A stretch of 64,000 bases of DNA, taken from an uncultured Pseudomonadales bacterium. GTDB lineage: Bacteria > Pseudomonadota > Gammaproteobacteria > Pseudomonadales > UBA7239. Position numbers and translations under genes: made by a program. Location: positions 30,940 through 94,939 of the forward strand of contig CAZDWC010000004.1 of the NCBI GenBank assembly GCA_964509075.1, given 5' to 3'. Position 1 is the stretch's first letter; each line of letters starts with the position of its first letter. Shown in pieces: positions 11,559-16,834 of the stretch. The notes under the pieces were generated by a model, which was not told the DNA's origin, did no database searches, and saw only the letters and a program-made list of their open reading frames with translations.

Positions 11559-11615
11559 ACAGCACGTCGTTGCATAATGCAGGCCCGACAACGAAACAAC
11601 AAACCGTGACTCACA

Positions 11616-12902
11616 ATGTCAAACGCCTTGAGCTCCTGCCGCTTAGCGCTGCAAATCCCACCTCGCTCATCTGCTGAATTCCCCTGGTTTGTCTTCTGGT
11701 TCTCTCTCGCGGGCATCGCCTGTGGCGTCTTCGTGACACGCATTTACCTGCTCAAGGACATGATCGGCATTTTTGATTTCCAGGGCTGGCTGCACTACAC
11801 AAAGATGTTTTTTGAGACAGGCATTGTCTATAACCGCGACCTCAGCTTGTATGGCCCATCCTCAGGCACGATGGGTTATCCGCCATTGCCCATCGCGCTG
11901 CTGATAGGCGCCCAGAAACTGGGGGCACCAGAAAACTTGTTGATATTCCTCTTGGCGCTCGAGCAAATATTTTGCCATCTTGGAACAGCTTTTCTGTGCA
12001 TTCTCAGTGCTCGCATCAATCCGCACTGGCGCTCTTTGCTGCCACTGATAGTTGCCTGCATGCTTTTTGTGCCTTCGCTGGAAGACAACCTCACTGCCCT
12101 GCAACTGGAGCCGACACTGCTTTTTCTTCTCGCAGTTTCATTGTTCTGTCTATCACGCAACCGAAATTTTCTCGCCGGATTTTTTACCGGATTTGCGGTC
12201 ATGCTCAAAGTGTATCCAGGAATAGCTGTAATCTACTTTTTGGTAACCCGGCGCTGGACTGCATTTGCAGGAATGATCTTTGCAGCGGCAGCAGCCAGCA
12301 TCGTTTCCATTTCAGTACTGGGCATTGACGAGCATGTCATATTCTACAAGCACATTGCACCTTTGCTTTTGAAAGAAAAACCAAGCCTTTTTTTCTACTC
12401 CAACACATCACTGATCAGCTACAGCCTTTACTTTGATCTGCTGACACCGGACAGGGCCAAACTGGTCAACAGCGCATTGCTCGCAGTGTTGTTAGTCATC
12501 GCCATGCTGCCGGCGCTGCGTGATGCCCCAGACAAAGAGCAAGACCATCTACGCATGACGCTGGACTTTTCCATTCTGGTTGCCATGCTCGTCATGTGCA
12601 TGCCAAACTCCTGGTGGAATTACCAGATACATCTGCTGCTGCCCATCATGGCAACTGCGGTCTTTCTCGTGGATCCGCAGCGTTTTTGCTGGCCGGCTGC
12701 CTTGGTCTGGCTTTCCGGGATCGGCCTGTTGTTTTTTACCATCACCCTGGGCGTCCACAAAGACATCAGTTATTTCGTAGACATGGAAAAACACCTGCGC
12801 ATGACCTATATCGTTTTGCGCGGTCTGCCCAACCTGCTTTTCTTTTCGCTGGCGCTGTGGATGCGTTGGTCAATGTGTGACATGAAAAACACCCCCCGGT
12901 GA
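11616..12902 (+). CDS. Polytopic membrane protein, DUF2029/GT87-like glycosyltransferase candidate
   Basis: 428 aa with ~10-12 hydrophobic helices and almost no soluble domain. Assignment rests on architecture and weak motif recall only. Confidence 0.5.
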   Translation: MSNALSSCRLALQIPPRSSAEFPWFVFWFSLAGIACGVFVTRIYLLKDMIGIFDFQGWLHYTKMFFETGIVYNRDLSLYGPSSGTMGYPPLPIALLIGAQKLGAPENLLIFLLALEQIFCHLGTAFLCILSARINPHWRSLLPLIVACMLFVPSLEDNLTALQLEPTLLFLLAVSLFCLSRNRNFLAGFFTGFAVMLKVYPGIAVIYFLVTRRWTAFAGMIFAAAAASIVSISVLGIDEHVIFYKHIAPLLLKEKPSLFFYSNTSLISYSLYFDLLTPDRAKLVNSALLAVLLVIAMLPALRDAPDKEQDHLRMTLDFSILVAMLVMCMPNSWWNYQIHLLLPIMATAVFLVDPQRFCWPAALVWLSGIGLLFFTITLGVHKDISYFVDMEKHLRMTYIVLRGLPNLLFFSLALWMRWSMCDMKNTPR

Positions 12903-12905
12903 ATT

Positions 12906-15194
12906 TCAATCGCTGTCTGTCTTGCTGTGCAGCAGGCGCGGATTCACGCCCAGCGCCGTCAAGGATTCCCGCACATGGTTGTTTATCGCCCGGGTGTTTT
13001 CCATGGCCATGACTTCAGCAAGCAATTTATTCGCATCTGGCATCTTCAGCTGACGAATCACCGATTTCACCTTGGGAAGGTTATTGGCGTTCATCGACAG
13101 CATGTCGTAGCCCATCGCCATCAGCAGCACGGCGGCACTCGGGTCGCCCGCCATCTCGCCACACACACTCACCGTTTTACCTTCTGCATGTACGTCTTCG
13201 ACGATGCGCGACAGCGCACGCAACACAGCGGGATGAAAACTGTGATACAGGCCGGCAACGCGCGGATTATTGCGATCCACCGCCAGCAAGTATTGCGTGA
13301 GATCGTTGGTGCCCACGGACAGAAAATCCACGCGTCTCGCCAGCTCGCGCGCTTGATAAACCGCTGCCGGCACTTCAATCATCGCACCCATTTGCGGCAG
13401 CTGGATGTTGTAGCCCTCTTCCAGCAATTCACGCCAGGCGCGCTGCACCAGCTTCAGCGCCTGTTCCAGTTCCTGCACACTGGAAATCATCGGCAGCATG
13501 ATGCGCAGATTGTTGAGATCCTCACTCGCTTTCAACATGGCGCGCACTTGCACCAGAAAAATTTCCGGATGATCCAGTGATACGCGGATGCCGCGCCAGC
13601 CAAGAAACGGATTGTCTTCGGTGATCGGAAAATACGGCAGTGACTTGTCGCCACCGATATCGAGCGTGCGCATGGTGACCGGATTGGGCGCGAAAGCCGT
13701 CAACTGTTCACGATAGGCATTGCGCTGCTCTTCTTCGCTGGGGAAACGATCCTTGAGCAAAAAGGAAATTTCCGTGCGATACAGGCCCACGCCTTCGGCA
13801 CCGCGATCCAGCGAGCGCACCACATCGGTCATCAAACCGGTGTTGACCCACAGCGGCAGGCGTTGGCCGTCCAGCGTTTCACAGGGCAGCGGCGTCAGTG
13901 CGTGGTATTCACGCGAAAACTGCTGCTCCTCGCGCCATATTTCTTCGAACTGGTGGCGCAATTCGCCGGAGGGATTGGTGTAGACACGGCCGCGGTAGGC
14001 ATCGAGCACTATCTCGCGGCGGTCGAGTTGCTGGTAGGGCAGATCCACCACGCCCATCACGGTGGGAATACCCATCGCACGCGCCAGTATCGCCACATGC
14101 GAAGATCCGGACCCACGCACGGAAATCAGGCCGACCAGCCGATCCTCCGGCACTTCGCCGAGCATGGAGGCTGTCAGTTCTTCGCCGACCAGAATGGTGC
14201 GCGGCGGATAATCGGTGCGCTTCTCGCGCTTGTGCTGCTGATCCAGCGCTGCCAGCACGCGCAAGCCGAGATCGCGCACATCGGTGGCGCGCTCGCGCAG
14301 GTAGCTGTCGTCCATCGCCTCGAAGGTGCGCACGTGTTCGAGAATGACTTGTGCCAATGCCGAGCGCGCCTGCAGCGATTCACTGACTATGCGGTTGACG
14401 ATCTCGCCACCCAGTGCGTTGTCGGTGAGCATGCCGAGATAGACATCAAACAGTGCGCGCTCCTCTTCGCGCAGGCGGTGCTGCAACTGTTCGGACAATT
14501 CCTGCAATTCACGTCGCACCCGACACAGTGCTGCGTTGAAGTAGCCCAATTCGGCCTCGACGTCATCGCTGGTGGCAATCTGTACGCCGAGAAGATCTGC
14601 CGTCGGGTAGATGACGGCGACTTCGCCAATCGCCACACCCTGTGCGCCGCAGACGCCCTGAAACGTCGCCTCCGGCGGCCGGTAACCGTGCAGGGCGACC
14701 TGGTTCAGCGAACCCGTGGCCTCGGCGTGGGCAATGACTGCCGCCAACTGCGCCGACAGCGTTACCAGAAACGCTTCTTCCGGCTCACCGAACTTGCGCT
14801 GTTCGACCTGCTGCACAACCAGCACGCCCAGCACTTTTCCCAGATGCAGGATGGGGCAACCGAGAAAAGAGCGGAAGCGCTCTTCGCCGGTTTCAGGGAA
14901 ATAGCGGTATTGCGGGTGAGATTCGGCATCCTCGAGGTTGATCGGCTCCTCGCGTTTTGCCACCAGACCGACCAGACCTTCCTCCAGACCCAGACTGACG
15001 CGACCAACCGATTCGCGATTCAAGCCCTCGGTGGCCATGAGGATGTAGCGCTGGCTGGCGGTGTCCAGCAGGTAGATGGAACACACTTCCGTGGCCATTT
15101 CCGCACGCACGCGCTGCACGATCAGCCACAGGGCCTGTTCGAGATTGGCCGCGGCATTGACCTCCTGTACTACCTTGCGCAACGCGCTGAGCAT
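12906..15194 (-). CDS. ptsP: Phosphoenolpyruvate-protein phosphotransferase PtsP (EI-Ntr, GAF-domain enzyme I)
   Basis: 762 aa. N-terminal GAF region, active-site His region GSGSSHVAILARAMGIPTV, and C-terminal FLSVGTNDLTQY. Confidence 0.95.
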   Translation of the reverse strand: MLSALRKVVQEVNAAANLEQALWLIVQRVRAEMATEVCSIYLLDTASQRYILMATEGLNRESVGRVSLGLEEGLVGLVAKREEPINLEDAESHPQYRYFPETGEERFRSFLGCPILHLGKVLGVLVVQQVEQRKFGEPEEAFLVTLSAQLAAVIAHAEATGSLNQVALHGYRPPEATFQGVCGAQGVAIGEVAVIYPTADLLGVQIATSDDVEAELGYFNAALCRVRRELQELSEQLQHRLREEERALFDVYLGMLTDNALGGEIVNRIVSESLQARSALAQVILEHVRTFEAMDDSYLRERATDVRDLGLRVLAALDQQHKREKRTDYPPRTILVGEELTASMLGEVPEDRLVGLISVRGSGSSHVAILARAMGIPTVMGVVDLPYQQLDRREIVLDAYRGRVYTNPSGELRHQFEEIWREEQQFSREYHALTPLPCETLDGQRLPLWVNTGLMTDVVRSLDRGAEGVGLYRTEISFLLKDRFPSEEEQRNAYREQLTAFAPNPVTMRTLDIGGDKSLPYFPITEDNPFLGWRGIRVSLDHPEIFLVQVRAMLKASEDLNNLRIMLPMISSVQELEQALKLVQRAWRELLEEGYNIQLPQMGAMIEVPAAVYQARELARRVDFLSVGTNDLTQYLLAVDRNNPRVAGLYHSFHPAVLRALSRIVEDVHAEGKTVSVCGEMAGDPSAAVLLMAMGYDMLSMNANNLPKVKSVIRQLKMPDANKLLAEVMAMENTRAINNHVRESLTALGVNPRLLHSKTDSD

Positions 15195-15203
15195 CGGGCT
15201 CTC

Positions 15204-15710
15204 CTAAACAGGGCTGTGCGATCTGGCGGTAAGAGCCAGATGGCAGGGAGCAAGTTCCTTGAGCGCACTGCGATATACCTCACGCTTGAACGGCACCACT
15301 CGCGTCAGAGGATACCAGTAACTGACCCAGCGCCAATGATCAAATTCCGGGGGTTCTGTGCCGTTATCGAATTGAATGCTGTCCTCGGCACCCAGCATCT
15401 GCAGCATGAACCACTTCTGCTTCTGACCGATGCACAGCGGGCTCTGGTTCTTGCGCACCAGGCGCGGCGGCAGGCGATAGCGCAGCCAGCCGCGGGTACA
15501 GCCCAGGATGCGCACGTCCGCGGGCGTCAGGCCCACCTCTTCGTGCAACTCGCGAAACAAGGCTGCTTCCGGGTCTTCCTGATGCTGGATACCGCCCTGT
15601 GGAAACTGCCAGGCATCAAGTCCGCCCACGCGGCGCGCCCACAGCAACTCACCCTGAGCATTTGCCAGCATGATGCCTACATTGGGGCGAAAACCTTCGG
15701 CGTCTACCAC
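15204..15710 (-). CDS. rppH: RNA pyrophosphohydrolase RppH (NudH)
   Basis: 168 aa. Nudix box [23 protein letters not shown]. It follows the conserved rppH-ptsP arrangement, with a 9-nt gap. Confidence 0.94.
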
Positions 15711-15776
15711 GAATCAGCTCTCCATTACGTCGTCATTGTTCCATAGTTCACCGCGTGGGCAAAGTGGCTCATCCTT

Positions 15777-15836
15777 CTGTTACCTGAGACATCCTCGCAT
15801 GCCTTTCGGTAACACAAGGCGAGTAGTTTGGTAACA
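15777..15836 (+). promoter_or_regulatory. Candidate upstream activating sequence for a sigma54 enhancer-binding protein (CbrB-like half-sites)
   Basis: CTGTTACC (15777-15784) and its reverse complement GGTAACA occur twice (15808-15814, 15830-15836). The sites are centred roughly 105-157 bp upstream of the predicted transcription start. Confidence 0.5.
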
Positions 15837-15879
15837 ACTCGACGTCCCGCACGTGATGCAGTTGGCATAACTACGCGCT

Positions 15880-15892
15880 TAACGGTTTGATT
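15880..15892 (-). promoter_or_regulatory. IHF-consensus match between UAS and -24/-12 promoter
   Basis: The minus strand reads AATCAAACCGTTA, which matches WATCAANNNNTTR. Confidence 0.4.
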
Positions 15893-15911
15893 TCACAAGC
15901 CAAACGCCAAC

Positions 15912-15926
15912 TGGCACACGCTTTGC
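15912..15926 (+). promoter_or_regulatory. sigma54 (RpoN) -24/-12 promoter
   Basis: TGGCACACGCTTTGC equals the TGGCAC-N5-TTGC consensus. GG at 15913-14 and GC at 15925-26 are separated by exactly 10 nt. Confidence 0.7.
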
Positions 15927-15937
15927 GTTATTACTCG

Positions 15938-16172
15938 TGCACAACAAGAACAACAGACGAACAATAACAACCGCCTTGAGTAGAGTGACAGCAAGAAAGT
16001 GAGTGAGAAAACACGCAACAACAGCAATAAATGCGTCAGCCCCACAAAAACAAACGGGCAATAAAACCAAGGTCTAACAAAGTGGAAGATCAGGAAGGGA
16101 CAGCGGCATAGTGCAAACACTGTGTGCGGCTGTTAAGCAAAAGGCCAGAACGGGCGACCGTTCTGGCCTTTC
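15938..16172 (+). ncRNA. Predicted sigma54-dependent A/C-rich small RNA (CrcZ-like Hfq/Crc-titrating sRNA candidate)
   Basis: No credible ORF in the region. A G-poor tract with clustered AAnAAnAA motifs (15943-15970, 16046-16053) and other A-rich runs begins ~12 nt after the -12 element. It ends at the stem-loop 16143-16168. Both ends are predicted, not mapped. Confidence 0.55.
16143..16168. terminator. Bidirectional intrinsic terminator (sRNA candidate on plus, GST gene on minus)
   Basis: GGCCAGAACGG-GCGA-CCGTTCTGGCC forms an 11-bp stem. It is followed by TTTCTG on the plus strand and TTTTGCTT on the minus strand. Confidence 0.7.
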
Positions 16173-16189
16173 TGCGTAAAGGGTATACG

Positions 16190-16834
16190 CTAGCGAACCA
16201 GACCCTGCACAAAGGCGCGCTCTTCCGGCAACACGGCAGCAAAACTCGGGCGAGCCAATACCCGCTCCAGCCAGGCATGCAGCTTCGGCCAGCGTTTGCG
16301 CTCCAGATGCTCACCGCCATGCTCCATATTGATGATCATGCAGGCAATGGCCACATCTGCCAGCGACAGGCGCTCCCCGGCAAAGAACGCCGACTCGCCC
16401 AGCTCGCGCTCCAGATACTCGAAATGCTCGATGGATGCCTGCAGCGCCTCGGCGACCTTTTCCTCACGGCAATGTCGCCCGAACAGCAGGTTGACCACAC
16501 GCTCGTGAAAAATTGCCTCCAATGCGCCTCGTAGTTCGTAGTCGGCGTATTTCTCGAACCACTCGCAGCGCGCTGCCAGCCAGGGGTCAGCTGGAACCAG
16601 CGGCGGTTCGGGAAAACAACGTTCCAGATAATGCGTGATGACACCGGAGTCCGGCAGGAAGTGACCATTGTGTTCCAGCACCGGGATGCGCTTTAGCGGA
16701 TTCAGTTCACGAAACTCATCCGGCAAGGGAAAGCTGGTGGCAACCAACTCGTAAGGCAGATGCTTTTCCAGCAGGGCAACGCGCACCTTGCGCACGAAAG
16801 GCGACAACGCTACACCGTGTATCCTGATACTCAT
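16190..16834 (-). CDS. Glutathione S-transferase family protein
   Basis: N-terminal thioredoxin-like fold (MSIRIHGVALSPFVRKVRVALLEKHLPYELV...RIPVLEH) and a helical C-terminal domain. Start chosen at 16834, preceded by AGAGGA. The track ORF extends to 16951. Confidence 0.85.
   Translation of the reverse strand: MSIRIHGVALSPFVRKVRVALLEKHLPYELVATSFPLPDEFRELNPLKRIPVLEHNGHFLPDSGVITHYLERCFPEPPLVPADPWLAARCEWFEKYADYELRGALEAIFHERVVNLLFGRHCREEKVAEALQASIEHFEYLERELGESAFFAGERLSLADVAIACMIINMEHGGEHLERKRWPKLHAWLERVLARPSFAAVLPEERAFVQGLVR

Follow-up and report, generated by a model that had tools for sequence, protein, structure and literature searches.

A probable CrcZ-class small RNA gene with a sigma-54 promoter, divergent from rppH-ptsP in uncultured Pseudomonadales

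The intergenic gap of about 480 bp (15711-16189) between rppH and a glutathione S-transferase (GST) gene in a 64-kb stretch of DNA from an uncultured Pseudomonadales bacterium (contig CAZDWC010000004.1; the whole stretch of 64,000 nucleotides is called the window) probably harbors a small RNA gene of the CrcZ/CrcY/CrcX class. Judged from sequence comparison, such a gene would be driven by CbrB and sigma-54, its product would titrate Hfq, and it would be unlinked to cbrB, as are the genes for CrcY or CrcX. It is very probable that a sigma-54-dependent small RNA is made here and likely that the activator of its promoter is a CbrB orthologue, and sequestration of Hfq is moderately favoured as the main action of the RNA. 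The elements of the locus are conserved in register at 11-12 loci, two hairpins of the RNA covary, and the promoter is homologous to that of crcZ. The gap is flanked on one side by rppH (15204-15710, minus strand), which is followed by ptsP (12906-15194), and on the other side by the gene for a GST of 214 amino acids (16190-16834, minus strand).

On the plus strand, between 15778 and 16174, the gap contains in this order TGTTAC, GTAACA-N16-GTAACA, an integration host factor (IHF) consensus, TGGCAC-N5-TTGC, an A-rich tract free of open reading frames (ORFs) and a terminator. A preliminary description of this DNA had listed coordinates for these motifs, and reading of the window sequence confirmed every one of them, including the three 7-mer boxes (CTGTTACC at 15777-15784 and GGTAACA at 15808-15814 and 15830-15836). 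Counted from the TGG of the -24 element, activator box F1 (TGTTAC, 15778-15783, plus strand) lies at about -133 by direct reading, box R1 (GTAACA, 15809-15814, plus strand) at -103 and box R2 (GGTAACA, 15830-15836, plus strand) at -81, with R1 and R2 together forming the GTAACA-N16-GTAACA pair. The core of this pair, GTAAC-N17-GTAAC (15809-15835), occurs once in the window against an expectation of 0.02. Among 101 fetched loci it was found only in the rppH-linked promoters of the family described below and in L084 and L085, two unrelated matches that a metagenome pattern scan had preselected for having GTAAC-N17-GTAAC. Between the enhancer boxes and the promoter, the minus strand carries an IHF-type bending site (AATCAAACCGTTA, 15880-15892). 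It is an exact match to the consensus WATCAANNNNTTR, in agreement with the preliminary description; exact copies of this consensus number two in the window, where 1.35 are expected. The sigma-54 promoter itself (TGGCACACGCTTTGC, 15912-15926, plus strand) had been recognized earlier as a -24/-12 element and is the sole exact match to TGGCAC-N5-TTGC in the 64 kb.

Relatives of this locus were sought by a scan for RppH with one genome per species, which gave five close relatives with RppH proteins that are 84-93% identical. All five are metagenome-assembled genomes (MAGs) of uncultured "Pseudomonadales"/Cellvibrionales, and their rppH upstream regions align with the window. MAGs with the element include GCA_041395665.1 (JAWLAB01), JAXMGN01, DAOMGE01 and DATIDQ01. 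Further members were obtained from a metagenome scan for the promoter architecture, from contigs with more RppH relatives, and from the window's own organism in three sequencing runs. The resulting family consists of 11 distinct RNA loci (111-238 nt), the window included, and of L092, which has the promoter followed by other downstream sequence. All these loci are divergent from rppH-ptsP and occur in MAGs of uncultured Cellvibrionales/"Pseudomonadales" and in metagenome contigs, with host RppH identities of 73-93%. The gene on the far side varies between loci (GST, an FHA-domain protein, cobT or a membrane protein); therefore, the element travels with rppH. Upstream of rppH it is absent in a 77% relative, in a 70% relative and in 75 more distant genomes.

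When the promoters are stacked on their -24 elements, GTAAC is present in all 12 at -101 to -103 and at -79 to -81, that is, 22 bp from start to start, and a GTTAC of the F1 type is found in eight of them at -131 to -136. An IHF-like site is located near -25 in the twelve promoters, with TAAnnnnTTGATT at about -32 (TTGAT at -25) in five of the first six relatives. TGGCAC-N5-TTGC is invariant in the first six sequences and near-invariant across the 12, which have TGGCA(C/T)-N5-TTGC. Alignment of the rppH upstream regions, which had been proposed as a check on conservation, showed that the -24/-12 element, the boxes and the A-rich modules are kept in the relatives. This in-register conservation of all elements in 11-12 loci is the strongest evidence against a chance arrangement. 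The metagenome scan for the promoter architecture gave 9 matches, seven of which belong to the same rppH-linked family, so that no paralogue or regulon was revealed. Similarly, a search with an nhmmer profile of the family detected no second copy of the RNA in the window or in any fetched flank. On the minus strand of L092 (WBZP01155530.1), past position 523, the boxes, IHF site and sigma-54 promoter are those of the rppH-linked family; the part that would be transcribed has an A-rich start and is then AT-rich, with none of the 3' modules of the family and no terminator. The RNA body of L092 may have been replaced or have degenerated, or the contig may be mis-assembled. Another observation concerns the block GTGATGC(A/G)GTT(G/T)G between R2 and the IHF site (15848-15866, plus strand), which is common to the window, L001 and L091, partially present in L003 and absent from the remaining members. 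This block may serve as one more binding site, specific to the lineage.

The spacing of the boxes was compared to that of authentic crcZ promoters. The reported CbrB site is TGTTAC-N12-14-GTAACA-N15-19-GTAACA, with IHF assisting (PMC8871633, PMC6296734). As positive controls we used two Pseudomonas cbrA-cbrB-crcZ-pcnB loci, L102 and L103. Measured from the TGG, both control loci have GTTAC at -123, GTAAC at -104 and -82, and an IHF-like motif at -25 (TTGAT in L102, TTGTT in L103), whereas the window has GTTAC at -133, GTAAC at -103 and -81, and TTGAT as the IHF-like motif at -25. The R1-N16-R2 arrangement thus fits the published N15-19 spacing and its distance to the -24 element equals that of real crcZ within 1-2 bp. 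A profile derived solely from the promoters of the twelve rppH-linked loci (-110 to +40) was run on 513 kb of sequence that comprised 75 rppH loci devoid of the element and five cbrB loci. The two Pseudomonas crcZ promoters were matched with E-values of 1.1e-11 and 7.7e-11, as were the three promoters in a Thalassolituus cbrB-pcnB gap (4e-6, 3e-3 and 1.6) and one promoter in L106 (9e-4). There was no match in the 75 control rppH loci and nothing outside the cbrB loci in the 513 kb. Because the profile retrieves cbrB-linked promoters and nothing else, the promoter and 5' end of the rppH-linked genes are homologous to those of crcZ.

The similarity extends into the start of the transcript. CrcZ of Pseudomonas and Azotobacter depends on CbrB, RpoN and IHF and titrates Hfq (with Crc). 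It is described as an RNA of 407 nt in which six A-rich stretches make contact with the distal face of Hfq (PMC4063720). Both CrcZ and the window RNA start with GCACAACAA, 13-15 nt past the GC of the -12 element. The first runs of A-R-N triplets (adenine, purine, any base; ARN) occur at about 5, 27 and 53 nt in the predicted RNA of the window, compared to 3, 31 and 58 nt in CrcZ, and runs at about 5 and 27 nt are found in most of the long homologues. When the same script was used to count ARN runs in real CrcZ it returned six, equal to the number in the window RNA.

Loci with a CrcZ-like RNA next to cbrB are also found outside the Pseudomonadaceae. CbrAB and the CrcZ-type RNAs have been described as exclusive to the Pseudomonadaceae in two papers from one group (PMC8871633, PMC6296734), and in the literature library that was searched no relevant paper reports CrcZ-like RNAs or CbrB from hosts other than Pseudomonas and Azotobacter. 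A library-wide protein search with a real CbrB sequence recovered many 50%-identity clusters. The CbrB-like proteins keep the C-terminal helix-turn-helix almost unchanged (LSLEDYF..FVLE.Q..MTETELA.KLGISRK.LWERRQRLGIPR), and those that could be named belong to Thalassolituus/Saccharospirillaceae, Maribrevibacterium and assorted gammaproteobacterial MAGs. In seven CbrB-like proteins (P0376, P0381, P0383, P0384, P0401, P0407 and P0414) the receiver and the CbrB-type helix-turn-helix are kept, with a GAFTGA loop that is degenerate or deleted; because this loop makes the contact with sigma-54, these proteins may no longer activate sigma-54 promoters.

The Thalassolituus locus (L104/L105; Thalassolituus sp. 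HI0120 / Saccharospirillaceae) has the gene order dksA-gluQ-cbrX-cbrA-cbrB-pcnB-folK-panBC, with a gene-free gap of 1.7 kb between cbrB and pcnB. In this gap (L104, 6408-8110) three sigma-54 promoters with GTTAC/GTAAC boxes are arranged in tandem, and an ARN-rich RNA follows each of them. The Rfam model of CrcZ gave only 32 and 17 bits on it, where the gathering score is 95. Two metagenomic loci contain much smaller RNAs. In L106 (8414-8764) the cbrB-pcnB gap has a CrcZ-like RNA of about 91 nt and there is no cbrA between gluQ and cbrB, where it is normally located, and in L107 (8333-8709), which has cbrX-cbrA-cbrB-pcnB synteny, the gap has one of about 121 nt. Both mini RNAs have 2-3 ARN runs in hairpin loops plus a terminator. 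Their similarity to the rppH-linked family is marginal (nhmmer E = 0.04 or more), and they differ from it in occupying the canonical cbrB-pcnB gap. Six of seven cbrB-linked promoters, the two from Pseudomonas among them, have an IHF-like TTG(A/T)T at -25 to -27; in the remaining one it is located at -36. The box set near -131/-122, -101 to -104 and -78 to -82 is complete in five of the seven and partial in the other two. Two cbrB-linked Thalassolituus promoters have a box at -131/-132, within the range of F1 in the rppH-linked family (-131 to -136). The cbrB-linked promoters thus share the grammar of the rppH-linked ones, including the -131 position that looked aberrant with respect to the Pseudomonas consensus.

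The predicted small RNA of the window extends from 15937 to 16174 on the plus strand (about 234-238 nt), with an inferred 5' end at 15937-15941 (GCACAACAA) and a 3' end past the terminator tail. The 238 nt have an A content of 39% and a T content of 13%, and the AT skew in the A-rich tract rises to +0.64. The A-rich tracts are found where the preliminary description had placed them, and its count of five overlapping AAnAAnAA matches was reproduced, out of 24 on the whole plus strand of the window. Runs of at least three ARN triplets, (ARN)≥3, occur six times in this RNA, compared to a mean of 0.39 per 238-nt tile window-wide. Nine long members of the family have 4-7 such runs per RNA and three shorter ones have 1 to 3. 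In the predicted structure of the window RNA the mean unpaired probability is 0.79 over the six runs and 0.40 elsewhere. In the family as a whole the ARN runs are likewise predicted to be mostly unpaired (0.6-0.99 vs 0.36-0.50 elsewhere), and in the predicted folds they often lie in loops closed by short GC stems, for example GCCC...GGGC. The absence of a credible ORF from the gap, as claimed before, was confirmed: all frames contain stops and no ORF is conserved among the homologues.

Several modules can be distinguished along the RNA, all on the plus strand. The first two (ARN)n modules at the 5' end, AACAAGAACAACAGA and AACAATAACAAC (15943-15971), are predicted to be single-stranded and are candidate sites for the distal face of Hfq. 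According to the minimum-free-energy fold they are followed by two hairpins. Hairpin H1 (ACGC/GCGT, 16013-16036) has the ARN run AACAACAGCAATAAA in its loop, and a similar GC stem with an A-rich loop is found in L001, L002, L004 and L005. Hairpin H2 (GCCC/GGGC, 16039-16059) displays CACAAAAACAAAC in its loop and has counterparts with GCCC..GGGC stems in L001, L002 and L100, a CCCCC..GGGGG stem in L004 and a CGGC..GCCG stem in L003. Next come the 3' boxes GTGGAAG ... GGAAGG (16082-16098), which were recognized by conservation in homologues. The succession of (A/T/G)GGAT and GGAAGG is present in 9 of 11 homologues amid drifting sequence and is not found in L097 and L100. These GGAU/GGAAGG boxes may serve as a seed for pairing or be recognized by a second protein.

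The 3' part ends with two further hairpins. Hairpin H4 (16100-16134) has an extended stem, ACAGC...GCTGT, in the window and a 5-bp stem with a GNRA tetraloop in relatives, where it follows the GGAAGG box. The 11-bp stem-loop described earlier at 16143-16168 is real and forms an intrinsic terminator with a GCGA loop and a TTTCTG tail (16143-16174). It could also end transcription of the convergent GST gene. Covariation was counted on gap-free alignments of the hairpins only, because whole-RNA MAFFT alignments are unreliable in the 3' half. H4 is 100% paired in six sequences, with GNRA loops in five of the six. Two of its five pairs show compensatory changes, one position being C-G, A-U and U-A, and 6 of 500 shuffles reach the covariation score. 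For the terminator, 96% of the cells in seven sequences are paired, four of the 11 pairs are compensatory and none of 500 shuffles reaches the score. Because the terminator and the GNRA hairpin covary, with G-U pairs that on the opposite strand would turn into A-C mismatches, the RNA is assigned to the plus strand. The earlier proposal of a CrcZ/CrcY-class RNA is thus supported by the conserved promoter geometry, the profile match to real crcZ and the presence of 4-7 mostly unpaired ARN runs in the nine long members.

A mechanism for such a gene can be proposed by analogy. An enhancer-binding protein of the CbrB type, postulated from the promoter, would bind TGTTAC (at 15778) and the two copies of GTAACA (at 15809 and 15831). 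IHF would bend the DNA at 15880-15892 and the activator could then open the sigma-54 promoter at 15912-15926, giving a transcript that would start near 15937-15941 and stop at the hairpin of 16143-16168. The RNA of about 235 nt would expose about five or six A-R-N runs in single-stranded linkers and hairpin loops, each of which could fill the distal face of one Hfq hexamer. Induction, presumably on poor carbon sources, would allow the RNA to titrate Hfq, with or without Crc, off A-rich ribosome-binding sites and thereby free catabolic mRNAs from repression.

Some results weigh against assignment to the CrcZ class. To start with, the gene is not located beside cbrB, and genes for an enhancer-binding protein, a protein with an RpoN box, Crc and Hfq are all missing from the 64-kb window. 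These were sought by the GAFTGA motif and the RpoN box, by phmmer with a sigma-54 AAA+ core, Crc and Hfq as queries, and by Pfam annotation of the ten largest ORFs; housekeeping genes alone came up. A canonical GAFTGA enhancer-binding protein was also absent from the scanned flanks of L001-L005 and L081-L092. Metagenomic Crc-like proteins (58-70% identity) and CbrB-like proteins were found, none of which could be assigned to the lineage of the window by sample or synteny. With respect to the promoter, the F1-R1 spacing is N24-25 (N25 in the window), whereas the published spacing is N12-14, and F1 is absent in four of the 12 promoters. An earlier caveat that the half-site spacing differs from that of Pseudomonas is therefore correct for F1 and not for the remainder of the promoter. 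Owing to the constant linkage to rppH-ptsP, the boxes are within about 70-125 bp of the rppH start, which would allow co-regulation.

Other difficulties concern the RNA itself. The Rfam model of CrcZ (RF01675), which scores 322 bits on the positive control L102, gave no match at E≤10 on the window, L095 or L003. A scan of the whole window at the gathering score (95 bits for CrcZ) detected no family, and permissive scans gave terminator-driven noise only. The CrcZ check suggested in the preliminary description thus left the window unmatched, both at the gathering score and at E≤10; the body of the RNA has diverged, or been rebuilt, too far for this model to recognize it. The nhmmer profile of the family matched real CrcZ with E = 0.006 and a bias larger than the score, which reflects composition only. 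The shortest members, L097 (121 nt) and L100 (111 nt), have one strict (ARN)≥3 run each, which is few for a sponge. Nothing in the CrcZ model corresponds to the 3' boxes GGAT/GGAAGG, which may point to an additional activity or another one, and the terminator tail in the window is weak (TTTCTG), whereas the relatives have tails of T5-8 on the plus strand after the hairpin. More generally, the rppH-linked RNAs differ from CrcZ in size (111-238 nt vs about 400 nt), in having a classical terminator, GGAT/GGAAGG boxes and a GNRA hairpin, in their position divergent from rppH-ptsP instead of between cbrB and pcnB, in an F1 box that is one helical turn further out, and in a host lineage outside the Pseudomonadaceae. 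The shorter RNA and the neighbourhood of rppH-ptsP instead of cbrB had correctly been pointed out before.

The 3' boxes are central to an alternative that we consider unlikely, namely that the gene encodes a sigma-54-driven, Hfq-dependent base-pairing small RNA of class II, acting instead of or besides a sponge, in which the ARN runs and the tail only serve as anchor and GGAU/GGAAGG is the seed. Conservation of GGAT/GGAAGG in 9 of 11 members amid drifting sequence fits this idea, as do the single strict ARN runs of L097 and L100 and the canonical terminator with U tail, which is as in typical Hfq-binding small RNAs and unlike the CrcZ sequences examined. However, the 4-7 regularly spaced ARN runs of the nine long members go far beyond what anchoring needs and mirror those of CrcZ, the boxes are lacking in L097 and L100, no target complementarity was identified, and a known sponge has a homologous promoter. 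GGA motifs could also suggest a sponge for CsrA/RsmA; this candidate was rejected since GGA is not enriched: 8 of 11 members have no more of it than expected and the others only slightly more.

A broader scenario, which we regard as rather doubtful, is that the CbrB-CrcZ circuit is widespread in marine Gammaproteobacteria in miniaturised forms, that the sponge gene moved to rppH-ptsP and that the 3' module adds a second activity. In such a case the shared divergent control region could let the activator co-regulate RppH, the RNA 5'-pyrophosphohydrolase, and EI-Ntr, enzyme I of the nitrogen phosphotransferase system (PTS-Ntr), and the gained 3' module (GGAU, GGAAGG and the GNRA hairpin) may base-pair or bind a second protein besides the titration of Hfq.

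It is slightly less probable again that the RNA is real and that its activator is another GTAAC-reading enhancer-binding protein responding to another signal, for example nitrogen status or PTS-Ntr, given the ptsP linkage. No cbrB could be tied to the genome of the window and the gene is always beside rppH-ptsP. The CbrB subsites of 6 bp are short and relaxed (PMC6296734), and a similar arrangement precedes the porin gene of L084, beside a different sensor kinase. On the other hand, the boxes, the 22-bp phasing of R1 and R2, the distance of about 80 bp to the -24 element and the position of the IHF site match the cbrB-linked crcZ promoters at five independent loci. The promoter profile retrieves cbrB-linked promoters only, and the CbrB recognition helix occurs widely among proteins of related marine Gammaproteobacteria.

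It is very improbable that there is no separate gene, with the gap consisting of regulatory DNA of rppH-ptsP, A-rich drift and a hairpin that merely ends the convergent gene. The boxes are indeed about 70-125 bp from the rppH start, just past conserved blocks that resemble an rppH promoter, and the terminator could work bidirectionally. Nevertheless, the sigma-54 promoter faces away from rppH, and the A-rich modules, GNRA hairpin and terminator have been kept although the downstream genes differ, with compensatory changes and G-U pairs that fit one strand only; the rppH loci of the 75 more distant genomes are without all of it. A small protein or leader peptide encoded by the tract is hardly credible: there is a 26-amino acid ORF with ATG in the window and MD(Q/R)GRK... 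in L002 and L004, but five of 11 members have no ATG ORF of at least 5 amino acids, all three frames are stopped in 9 of 11, the window included, indels are not multiples of three, and no start codon or Shine-Dalgarno sequence is conserved.

The assignment to the CrcZ class can be placed next to other small RNAs with enhancer-dependent promoters. The promoters of CrcY and CrcX have F1, R1 and R2 subsites plus IHF (PMC6296734), the same logic as found here. According to their descriptions, CrcY of P. putida and CrcX of P. syringae are also unlinked to cbrB and are extra CbrB-dependent paralogues of CrcZ. Their A-rich motif design is as in the rppH-linked RNA. They belong to another taxon with other synteny, and no Rfam family, theirs or any of those mentioned below, matched the window RNA. 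The enterobacterial GlmY and GlmZ have promoters that depend on sigma-54, GlrR and IHF, and GlmY is a protein decoy; they share with the present case an enhancer-dependent, IHF-assisted promoter for a small RNA that sequesters a protein, or in the present case would do so. They differ in having TGTC-N10-GACA sites, no ARN repeats and RapZ as the partner, and are unrelated in sequence to the window RNA. NrsZ of P. aeruginosa, an NtrC/RpoN-dependent small RNA from a related order, has NtrC-type sites, unlike the GTAACA-type boxes found here, and other modular repeats.

A few observations were made on surrounding or unrelated sequences. The blocks CATTGTTCCA (15734-15743) and GCAAAG (15759-15764), situated 25-55 nt before the start of rppH, are invariant in six relatives. 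Along the coding strand of rppH their sequence is TTTGCC ... ATGGAACAATGA, and the F1 box is about 15 nt beyond them. They look like a sigma-70 promoter or leader of rppH, or a mini-ORF of 3 codons (M-E-Q-stop). Beside ptsP, AACAACAA (11595-11602, plus strand) is positioned 14 nt upstream of the start of a gene for a GT87-family glycosyltransferase (11616-12902). It is the only AAnAAnAA in the window at ≤40 nt upstream of a predicted start codon and would be the expected look of a target for the distal face of Hfq; a single case is too few for a test of an Hfq regulon. On the high-GC contig L084 (3079-3196, plus strand), GTAAC/GTTAC boxes about 80 bp upstream of TGGCAC-N5-TTGC precede a porin gene, in an array that is divergent from genes for a PhnD-like binding protein and a sensor kinase. 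This porin could be a protein-coding target of a CbrB-like or other regulator; oprD is a reported CbrB target in P. putida.

Together, the rppH locus, the Thalassolituus locus and the two metagenomic cbrB loci argue that the sigma-54/CbrB design for an Hfq sponge is older and broader than the published restriction to the Pseudomonadaceae, and suggest that the carbon-source control circuit reaches beyond this family. The mechanism is already known; what these loci would add is a wider distribution and naturally minimal sponges. RNA family models miss such relatives, as illustrated by the lack of an Rfam match at the rppH locus and the 17-32 bits obtained in Thalassolituus. For annotation it means that an apparently empty gap of 480 bp probably is a gene. 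The putative natural minimal sponges, of about 90-240 nt, may indicate how many ARN modules are needed to titrate Hfq, and the locus would offer a testable handle on the carbon-source hierarchy in uncultured marine heterotrophs.

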